From contig CM000155.2 in assembly GCA_000004695.1 (NCBI GenBank), positions 2,112,001 through 2,176,000 on the forward strand: a stretch of 64,000 nt of DNA. The letters are read 5' to 3'. Below are positions 58,773 through 60,234 of this stretch, in pieces. The translations under genes and the position numbers were made by a program. Under the pieces are notes generated by a model that saw only the letters and a list, made by a program, of their open reading frames with translations, was not told the DNA's origin and ran no database searches. Each line of letters opens with the position of its first letter. Positions within the stretch are counted from its first letter, which is position 1. This DNA is from Dictyostelium discoideum (taxonomy: Eukaryota).

Positions 58773-60234
58773 TTAAATATCATATTTTAAATGACAAATT
58801 TGAGAATTTTTAAAGCAAATGAATTCAGATACTTCACCAGGATCAGTATTTGAAGGACAATTTTCACAATCAGTTAAAACACCGGCTCTATATAAACAAA
58901 TTGTAGCAAGTTCAGAGCAGAATACAGATCTATCACTTGTCCAATTCCATTTCTTTAATCTCTCCAATAAGAGAATTGCAGCTTGAAAAACATCAAATGG
59001 TAAACGAGCACCATGCATTTCGAAACAGTTTGTTAAGTATCTCTCTTTTTGTCTCTCATTGAATGGTTGAGCTAAACGAATCGCTTGTACATTGTAACCT
59101 TCATATTCCTTAATACGGTCTTTCAAATTGAATATATTCACACCAGTCAACACTTGATTCTTTCTAAATGGGTCCTTAATAGTCTCTTTACCAACTGCCT
59201 CCATAACATAAAGTACTGGCTCCTCTGATAACTCCTCACCCCTAATATGATTTATAAATGGATAAGTCTTTATAACAACACCAACATGTGACCATGGTCT
59301 ATAAAATCTGTCCCTAATTATCTCTGAAATTGGTGACGATCCTGAATATAAAATTATATCACCATTATCAAGATCATCAAATGGTTGCATAATTGATAAA
59401 TGGTCATTTGAATTTCTTGTCTATATAATAAAGCTGTGATTAATATTTTATTTATATATATATGTTTGTGATTTTATAAATATGGTATATACTTACAGGT
59501 TTAATAATTGAATTTGATTCTTTTAATGTTTTTAAATTTGTTGTGAATAATATATTTAAAATAACGGAATCATGACCAGGTTGTTGAGGATTGGCACCAT
59601 CCATTGTGGTTTGACCGCTACTATCTGGTGATGATGAACTATTAACATCTTTAATTAAGAGTTTGATGATTTCACCTTGATTGTATTGACCAATATCAAA
59701 TATGAAATCATTATATTTTGGTGATTTTGGACTAGTTGAACCAAGTTTAATTGTACATATATTGATTGATTGAATGAATTCATGTTGAATTACTCCCTTA
59801 TTCCAAACTGAATTTTTATAATAGTCACATGATACTTTTTCGGTTTTTCCATTGTAATCAACACTAACTGTTAATTTATGACCATCATGTATCTTTATAA
59901 CCTCTTCATGATTTTCTGCATAACCTGGGAATGCTGATGAATTTTCGCAATTTAATACTTTTTGGATCAAAATATATAAATAAAAAAAAAAGAAAAAAAA
60001 TAAAAAATTAGAAAATTTATTTTGGTGGGAATGGCATAAAAAAAAATTAAAAAATAAAATAAAAAAAGATTAAAAAAAAAAATATTCGAAAATGGATTCG
60101 TGTAAAGTTAAAAAAAAAAAAAAAAAAAAGAAAAATAAAATTATTAAAAAAAAAGAAAATAAAATCTTACTTATAAAGGTTAATAAACCATCTTTAATAT
60201 TTGCTTTGGTTTCTATTGATGGTTTGTTACCCAT
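58773..60234 (-). CDS. YiiX/YaeF-like permuted papain-fold (NlpC/P60 superfamily, C92-type) amidase/peptidase domain protein with N-terminal myristoylation consensus
   Basis: Exons 60171..60234 (MGNKPSIETKANIKDGLLTFI; donor GTAAGA, phase 1), 59497..59957 (acceptor aaaaag; donor GTAAGT) and 58773..59420 (acceptor tatatag). The C-terminal domain has the permuted catalytic arrangement: GDIILYSGSSPISEIIRDRFYRPWSHVGVVIK (His), then ..EAVGKETIK.., then YEGYNVQAIRL, then SVFCSELATICLYRAGVL (Cys). This is characteristic of bacterial YiiX-like proteins. MGNKPS fits the N-myristoyltransferase M-G-x-x-x-S consensus. Confidence 0.65.

Follow-up and report, generated by a model that had tools for sequence, protein, structure and literature searches.

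The gene DDB_G0292860 of Dictyostelium discoideum AX4 lies on the minus strand of a 64,000-nucleotide stretch of contig CM000155.2 (positions 2,112,001 to 2,176,000, here called the window). Its spliced product of 390 amino acids agrees letter for letter with XP_629395.1/EAL60979.1 (UniProt Q54CM1), which the databases label only as a "hypothetical protein", and we found no paper that mentions DDB_G0292860 or Q54CM1. Our analysis indicates that this protein carries a probable N-myristoylation signal, followed by a C2-like domain that is cryptic at the sequence level and by a divergent permuted NlpC/P60 catalytic domain. On this basis we propose that it may act as a membrane-tethered enzyme of lipid acyl chemistry. 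The coordinates of the gene, of its domains and residues, and of its neighbours are collected in Table 1.

The exon structure was examined with two transcript contigs from the Logan collection, L002 (SRR24091725, 1280 nt) and L003 (SRR24091727, 1222 nt). Both are too short for the genomic gene; against the window, each of them splits into precisely three aligned segments, broken at 60171|59957 and 59497|59420. The start codon of the sequence MGN is the first ATG in both transcripts, none being found upstream. The preliminary description of this DNA, made from its letters alone, had proposed three exons with canonical introns; both junctions are exact in the two transcripts, and the splicing of the short first exon to exon 2 is thereby confirmed together with the MGN start. 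The coding sequence comprises 1173 nt with 30.7% GC, as compared to 23.1% for the whole window, and the introns are much richer in AT than the exons (Table 1). Long poly(A)- and poly(T)-rich tracts typical of D. discoideum are found in the surrounding intergenic and intronic sequence (58440-58720, 59975-60165 and 60240-60520), and short spurious BLAST matches arise from them by the hundred all over the window.

Table 1. Location of DDB_G0292860, its functional elements and neighbouring genes. Positions are those of the window unless a contig is named; residues are those of the 390-residue protein; conservation is given as the number of homologous domains, out of 132, that share the residue. 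UTR, untranslated region; ORF, open reading frame; NMT, N-myristoyltransferase.
Feature	Residues	Position	Strand	Remarks
Gene DDB_G0292860		60234..58773	minus	three exons, 1462 bp genomic
5′ UTR, minimum extent		60235..60292	minus	nt 1-58 of transcript contig L002, 100% match
Exon 1, coding part		60171..60234	minus	64 nt; MGNKPSIETKANIKDGLLTFI plus first base of Ile22; end set by two transcripts
Codons of N-myristoylation signal	Met1-Gly2-Asn-Lys-Pro-Ser6-Ile7	60214..60234	minus	fits NMT consensus
Intron 1		59958..60170	minus	213 nt, GTAAG..AG, 12.7% GC; missing from L002 and L003
Exon 2		59497..59957	minus	461 nt, most of C2-like domain; splice sites and transcripts
Intron 2		59421..59496	minus	76 nt, GTAAGT..AG, 15.8% GC; splice sites and transcripts
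Exon 3		58773..59420	minus	648 nt including TAA stop; reading frame and transcripts
3′ UTR, minimum extent		58724..58772	minus	L002 reaches 58724
C2-like beta-sandwich domain	~15-172	59506..60192	minus	span includes intron 1
Permuted NlpC/P60 (YaeF/YiiX-like, C92) catalytic domain	~185-385	58791..59393	minus	
Superfamily GD motif	G195-D196			Asp25 of BcPPNE; G 128/132, D 129/132
Catalytic base and preceding Ser	S219-H220	59286..59288 (His220, CAT)	minus	Ser48-His49 of BcPPNE; S 125/132, H 130/132
Third triad residue	Glu249	59199..59201 (GAG)	minus	Glu64 of BcPPNE; E 124/132
Fourth catalytic position	Phe317	58995..58997 (TTT)	minus	column of Tyr127 of BcPPNE
Putative nucleophile and following residues	Cys343-Ser344-Glu345	58917..58919 (Cys343, TGC)	minus	Cys154-Ser155 of BcPPNE (ICSE); C 130/132, S 127/132, E 124/132
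Patatin-like phospholipase (PF01734)		57766..54263	minus	1167-aa ORF; directly downstream of DDB_G0292860, same strand
Palmitoyl-protein thioesterase (PF02089)		62426..61470	minus	upstream, two-exon; ORF pieces 61917-62426 (E 1.5e-38) and 61470-61736 (E 1.2e-19)
Patatin-like loci on contigs of other species		L007 2583-6474; L009 9704-13108; L010 9162-12407; L008 12023-15668		

Searching Pfam with hmmscan returned no family for the 390-residue protein even at E ≤ 10, so neither PF05708 (Peptidase_C92) nor C2 (PF00168) is matched directly. Likewise, the precomputed Pfam annotation is blank for every dictyostelid orthologue, and a word-indexed protein search with the single sequence retrieved dictyostelids only. 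The family searches were led by the orthologue P0001, which is 98% identical to the window protein. An exhaustive HMMER profile search of 1.84 billion representatives yielded 670 proteins at E ≤ 1e-3; among the matches listed, those beyond the orthologues cover the C-terminal ~200 residues, and 83 of 147 homologues from the profile search match PF05708. When compared with the PDB, a profile built solely from dictyostelid orthologues gives a weak match to 3kw0 (E 0.0011), while a 38-sequence domain profile matches 3kw0 over nearly the full domain (E 8.1e-17) as well as YiiX of E. coli (2if6, E 8.5e-9). The entry 3kw0 is BcPPNE of B. cereus, a structurally characterised YaeF/YiiX-like permuted NlpC/P60 enzyme (PMC3142127). 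In addition, hhalign aligns the dictyostelid-only profile with six PF05708-annotated proteins over 154 columns (E 2.3e-24, probability 99.6%). Finally, the NlpC/P60 alpha/beta fold of the predicted model (AlphaFold2; mean predicted local distance difference test score, pLDDT, of 73) superposes on solved members of the family, its closest structural matches being BcPPNE and YiiX.

Since the profile-profile comparison, the profile search of the PDB and the predicted structure agree, despite the null result with Pfam, the C-terminal half of the protein is a divergent YaeF/YiiX-like (Peptidase_C92) permuted NlpC/P60 domain. The papain-fold assignment to YiiX/C92 previously made for the last ~210 residues is thus retained, with the qualification that it does not come from a direct match to PF05708. 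The closest neighbours in sequence or structure are not LRAT-like proteins (LRAT/PLAAT family). A search of the PDB with the single sequence had also returned PflA (9hmf_K, E 0.0062) with an alignment spanning both domains; we attribute this match to chance because it is lost with the family profile.

The catalytic residues were located by profile alignment to 3kw0, taking into account a tag offset of 19 residues, and with the residue list of Xu et al. (PMC3142127). The GD motif, Ser219, His220, Glu249, Cys343, Ser344 and Glu345 are invariant in all dictyostelid orthologues, whose overall identity is ~39-45%. His220 is part of the peptide RPWSHVGVVIK (residues 216-226), and Cys343, the putative nucleophile, belongs to an FCSE motif at the beginning of FCSELATICLYRAGVL (residues 342-357). 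The order of histidine before cysteine, already recognised in these two peptides as that of a permuted enzyme, is conserved throughout the dictyostelids and in nearly every homologous domain (Table 1). On the other hand, the fourth catalytic residue, a tyrosine that touches the P1 carbonyl in BcPPNE (Tyr127) and YiiX (Tyr115) (PMC3142127), is replaced by Phe317. This column holds Phe in 11/11 dictyostelids, Phe (12) or Tyr (16) in the rest of the eukaryotic clade described below, and most frequently Tyr outside that clade. As the triad is invariant and yet this column alternates between Phe and Tyr, we infer that the requirement for the fourth residue has been relaxed, rather than that activity has been lost.

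The region preceding the catalytic domain, which contains the peptide ILNCENSS... from residue 22 onwards, had been described as some 150 residues without an obvious family. This holds for sequence methods, which find none, whereas the fold points to a divergent C2 domain. In the predicted model, a beta-sandwich of eight strands is built by residues ~17-160 (pLDDT ~74-95 except in the loop 131-147), and this sandwich superposes on solved C2 domains; Foldseek agrees, and its structural matches include the C2 domains of cytosolic phospholipase A2 (cPLA2). Furthermore, 15 homologues have a Pfam C2 domain directly before their C92-like domain on the N-terminal side, five of them from named amoebozoans (E 1e-8 to 6e-23). 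Given the predicted fold and the identical position of the canonical C2 in these relatives, the best reading of the N-terminal region is a C2 domain whose sequence has changed too far in Dictyostelia to be recognised. Neither SDPY-like nor DxD calcium-ligand motifs are visible at the aligned positions (GHKLTV; STSxKxPK) in what is a weak alignment, and for this reason a calcium-independent domain appears likelier. Within the low-confidence and otherwise variable Ser/Gln-rich loop 131-147 (window ~59580-59630, minus strand), the tripeptide D141-G142-A143 is invariant in all dictyostelid orthologues.

N-myristoyltransferase (NMT) recognises the consensus G-{EDRKHPFYW}-x(2)-[STAGCN]-{P} (PROSITE PS00008). 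Exon 1 begins with ATG GGT AAC AAA CCA TCA, encoding MGNKPS, and the sequence GNKPSI matches this consensus. We compared the N-termini of 11 dictyostelid orthologues, among them those of Dictyostelium spp., Polysphondylium violaceum, Tieghemostelium, Heterostelium, Synstelium and Cavenderia. Met-Gly is invariant in all 11, while the next dozen residues vary freely; the NMT pattern fits 10 of the 11, with Ser or Thr at position 6 in 10, the exception being Synstelium (MGNSNV). The myristoylation consensus noticed at the outset is therefore borne out, as transcripts establish the true start and Met-Gly is invariant among the orthologues, and Gly2 is probably N-myristoylated. The absence of a cysteine near the N-terminus of the DDB_G0292860 protein makes palmitate unlikely as a second signal; the obvious candidate for a second membrane contact would be the C2-like domain of the predicted model. 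A literature search for a myristoylome of Dictyostelium returned no paper.

Starts of the same kind occur elsewhere in the family. Five short C92 homologues of 215-265 aa (P0044, P0063, P0102, P0113 and P0142) have strong starts of the myristoylation/palmitoylation type, namely MGCTLS, MGAAPS, MGNFLS, MGSGYS and MGCGIS. Judging by such sequences, an N-terminal lipid anchor may have arisen repeatedly on the C92 domain. The 7.5-kb contig carrying P0063 (L011 3667-4401) encodes small open reading frames with few Pfam matches apart from an ankyrin-repeat protein, and may belong to a giant virus.

Taken together, we consider it reasonably probable, at about 60%, that DDB_G0292860 encodes a myristate- and C2-tethered cysteine acyl-hydrolase or acyltransferase acting on membrane lipid. 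Upon removal of Met1, NMT would myristoylate Gly2 and so provide a first, weak membrane anchor. The degenerate C2-type sandwich might then make a second, calcium-independent contact with the membrane or with a partner, orienting the catalytic domain. Cys343 would serve as the nucleophile and His220 as the base, with Glu249 orienting the histidine. By analogy with other permuted NlpC/P60 enzymes, an acyl-thioester would be formed with a fatty-acyl linkage, either the sn-1 or sn-2 ester of a phospholipid or an N-acyl amide, and the acyl group would subsequently be hydrolysed or transferred. Most likely, this would take place on the cytosolic face of a membrane. Substrate and mechanism are suggested by the family: the S1 pocket of permuted NlpC/P60 enzymes is hydrophobic, and YiiX was crystallised with a fatty acid (PMC3142127). 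We propose membrane-lipid acyl chemistry because the permuted relatives with measured or genetic roles all involve acyl chains, namely LRAT/PLAAT with phospholipase A1/2 and acyltransferase activities, the phospholipase Tox-Act1, and LnsA, which is needed for the N-acylation of lipoproteins.

It is possible, if rather doubtful, that the substrate is an amide. The protein would then be a lipo-amino-acid or lipopeptide amidase, stripping membrane proteins, for instance, of fatty acyl groups at the N-terminus or of acylated residues, or else a protein or isopeptide peptidase. BcPPNE and YiiX, its closest structural matches, bound a lysine beside the triad and a fatty acid, respectively, from which Xu et al. 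proposed cleavage of fatty acid-amino acid amides and speculated on how fatty-acylated proteins are regulated (PMC3142127). The genomic neighbourhood offers a further argument in the same direction, as D. discoideum has a palmitoyl-protein thioesterase gene upstream of DDB_G0292860, D. purpureum has one adjoining the orthologue on its upstream side (L006 5039-5905), and in P. violaceum one (L010 3659-4677) lies upstream at a distance of two genes. However, our literature search found no demonstrated amidase activity for any YaeF/YiiX-like member, and the permuted relatives with demonstrated activity act on phospholipid acyl esters. Moreover, the tyrosine that places the P1 carbonyl is Phe in the protein studied here, and the more widely conserved of the two neighbours is a phospholipase.

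This second neighbour is a patatin-like phospholipase. As in D. discoideum, its orthologue is found directly downstream and in the same orientation in Heterostelium album, Tieghemostelium lacteum and Polysphondylium violaceum, and in Cavenderia fasciculata it is one gene further away. Downstream of the D. purpureum counterpart of DDB_G0292860 lies a gene other than the patatin orthologue, which is not seen within the 3 kb before the contig ends. Since the other neighbours of DDB_G0292860 orthologues vary between species, the pair is specifically retained. The patatin orthologues measure ~1100-1240 aa and share 73-82% identity over their core, far above the values of their C92-containing partners, and display hydrophobic stretches past the start of the patatin match. 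In D. discoideum, the palmitoyl-protein thioesterase, DDB_G0292860 and patatin genes form a row of three acyl-ester/amide hydrolase genes.

As weak evidence, this neighbourhood fits a lipid-directed role. A more specific proposal, which we regard as speculative and improbable, is that the myristoylated C2-containing protein and the adjoining multi-pass patatin-like phospholipase would constitute a conserved two-enzyme module for membrane-lipid remodelling, the former acting as a PLAAT-like, calcium-independent acyl- or N-acyl-transferase that makes, for example, N-acyl-phosphatidylethanolamine. To our knowledge, Dictyostelium is not known to have PLAAT enzymes.

The preliminary description had regarded the gene as a bacterial-type enzyme, likely horizontally acquired and then domesticated. 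Orthologues of DDB_G0292860 are found in all dictyostelid groups, and relatives combining C2 and C92 domains come from at least five further genera of Amoebozoa and from transcripts of marine protists (MMETSP). Their architectures are PLAT-C2-C92 in Nematostelium gracile, EF-hand-C2-C92 in Nolandella sp., and C2-C92 in Flabellula baltica, Rhizamoeba saxonica and Endostelium zonatum, the last with a PF05708 score of 28.4 bits against a gathering threshold of 27. We placed 135 domain sequences in a rough, distance-based neighbour-joining tree with 100 bootstraps, rooted on P0017; the sampling of bacteria is thin, and prokaryotic labels were given by genomic context, P0011 and P0017 being bacterial and P0014 deriving from a T4-like phage contig. 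The 11 dictyostelid sequences are monophyletic in 99/100 bootstraps. They sit in a clade of 39 leaves that holds every labelled eukaryotic sequence and none of P0011, P0017 and P0014, and the grouping without P0011 and P0014 is recovered in 77/100 bootstraps. The domain begins at a median position of residue 144 inside this clade and of residue 3 outside it.

The idea of a recent horizontal transfer, in which a bacterial YiiX-type enzyme would later have gained introns, an unrelated N-terminus and a myristoylation signal, thus appears very unlikely. It draws on the numerous single-domain proteins of the PF05708 type in bacteria and phages, of which P0011, P0017 and P0014 are labelled homologues, and on the view of Xu et al. 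(2011; PMC3142127) that eukaryotic PPNEs stem ultimately from bacteria. It could also appeal to bacterial P0011, which has the top total score outside Dictyostelia (158 bits), but this value is the sum over two tandem domains and we have therefore rejected P0011 as the nearest relative. The best single-domain scores of non-dictyostelid proteins belong to P0012 (119.6 bits), a sequence of no assigned taxonomy that lies in the eukaryotic clade, and to P0013 (108.7 bits), a PLAT-C2-C92 protein. Nor is the N-terminal region unrelated, as it corresponds to the C2 module common to the eukaryotic clade, and the distribution of orthologues and relatives just described, together with the tree, runs counter to a recent arrival. 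DDB_G0292860 therefore appears to be the dictyostelid member of a eukaryotic C2+C92 family distributed across Amoebozoa and other protists, and a recent bacterial import is not supported. An ancient bacterial or viral origin is possible for the eukaryotic clade as a whole, and would not be specific to this gene.

Among the bacterial and phage homologues, a C92-like gene is present on a 113-kb T4-like phage contig (L004 5001-5594), beside genes for ribonucleotide reductase and dCMP deaminase. A tandem two-domain C92-like protein is encoded on a bacterial contig (L001 8001-9401), beside genes for DndE and an ATPase of the AAA_23/SMC_N type.

Also very unlikely is that the catalytic domain is a pseudoenzyme or a non-catalytic lipid-binding module and the protein a membrane adaptor, for instance for the patatin-like phospholipase encoded next to it. 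In favour of this, all dictyostelids have lost the fourth catalytic residue, the lid region 315-341 is of low confidence in the model, and PPNE pockets can hold lipid that is not turned over, such as the fatty acid of YiiX. Against it, the catalytic residues remain invariant at the low overall identity given above, a pattern expected of an active enzyme; Phe and Tyr replace each other freely within the eukaryotic clade, so that the hydroxyl seems dispensable there; and mutagenesis of LRAT shows some canonical residues to be non-essential.

Several observations weigh against a myristate- and C2-tethered lipid enzyme of eukaryotic affinity. Besides the null result with Pfam, the structural evidence consists of one AlphaFold2 model built from 8 sequences, whose pLDDT drops below 50 close to the active site (residues 253-267 and 315-341). 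Aligned directly by hhalign, the N-terminal region and the relatives' C2 domains give E 0.019, a probability of 2.4% and 67 columns; the register of the strands is plausible, and the match is not significant. The presence of Phe317 in place of an oxyanion-stabilising tyrosine in every dictyostelid may mean that catalysis is altered or weakened. The support for the eukaryotic clade is only 77%, in a distance-based tree most of whose leaves carry no taxonomy. Finally, myristoylation, membrane localisation and substrate are predictions, and a conserved neighbourhood is weak functional evidence in a eukaryote.

Comparison with known systems places the lipid-directed enzyme proposed here among several partial counterparts. 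BcPPNE (PDB 3kw0) and YiiX (PDB 2if6) are single-domain bacterial proteins of ~190 aa with a catalytic Tyr127 or Tyr115; DDB_G0292860 differs from them by Phe317, an extra insert between His220 and Glu249, the Met-Gly signal, the C2-like domain, the introns and the lack of a Pfam match. The C2+C92 proteins of protists (EP01088_P017352 of Endostelium zonatum, P017183 of Flabellula baltica, P015672 of Rhizamoeba saxonica, and those of Nolandella, Nematostelium gracile and MMETSP) share with it the domain order, the neighbour-joining clade and the variation between Phe and Tyr at the fourth catalytic position. In contrast, their C2 domain is canonical and often preceded by PLAT, EF-hand or IQ, and the named ones all miss the NMT consensus, whereas in the dictyostelid members the C2 domain is not recognisable by sequence and shows no visible calcium-ligand motifs in the weak alignment, and Met-Gly is fixed. 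C2-fused permuted NlpC/P60 enzymes were already noted by Xu et al. in 2011 (PMC3142127).

The best functional analogue is offered by the LRAT/PLAAT proteins (HRASLS, H-rev107), which have the permuted NlpC/P60 core and the Cys-His acyl-thioester chemistry that we assume by analogy for DDB_G0292860; they are membrane-anchored and act on phospholipid acyl chains as phospholipases A1/2 and as O- and N-acyltransferases. cPLA2 follows the same logic, with a C2 membrane-targeting module N-terminal to an acyl hydrolase, but its catalytic domain is an unrelated Ser-Asp alpha/beta hydrolase and its C2 is calcium-dependent. The same C92 fold is also found in poxvirus G6R/OPG091 and in proteins of Medusavirus, Marseillevirus, Pithovirus and phages (Foldseek against BFVD, E 2e-7 to 5e-4), several of these viruses infecting amoebae; these proteins are short (160-285 aa) and match only the C-terminal domain of the DDB_G0292860 model.

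By 2011 this family had been described, including its permuted order and its members joined to C2 domains, and a lipid anchor at the N-terminus of a membrane enzyme is nothing unusual. New are the sequence-cryptic C2 domain, the fixed Met-Gly, the change from Tyr to Phe, the eukaryotic affinity and the conserved patatin neighbour. A blank "hypothetical protein" thereby gains a testable annotation, with a probable lipid anchor, a cryptic C2 domain and an intact Cys-His-Glu permuted NlpC/P60 site, and a tempting account of horizontal transfer is removed as unsupported. We know of no firmly established physiological substrate for the YaeF/YiiX branch in any organism. DDB_G0292860 appears to be a single gene in Dictyostelium, which is genetically tractable, and Cys343 is a clear position for a catalytically dead variant; the gene would thus be a convenient eukaryotic entry point to this branch of the family.

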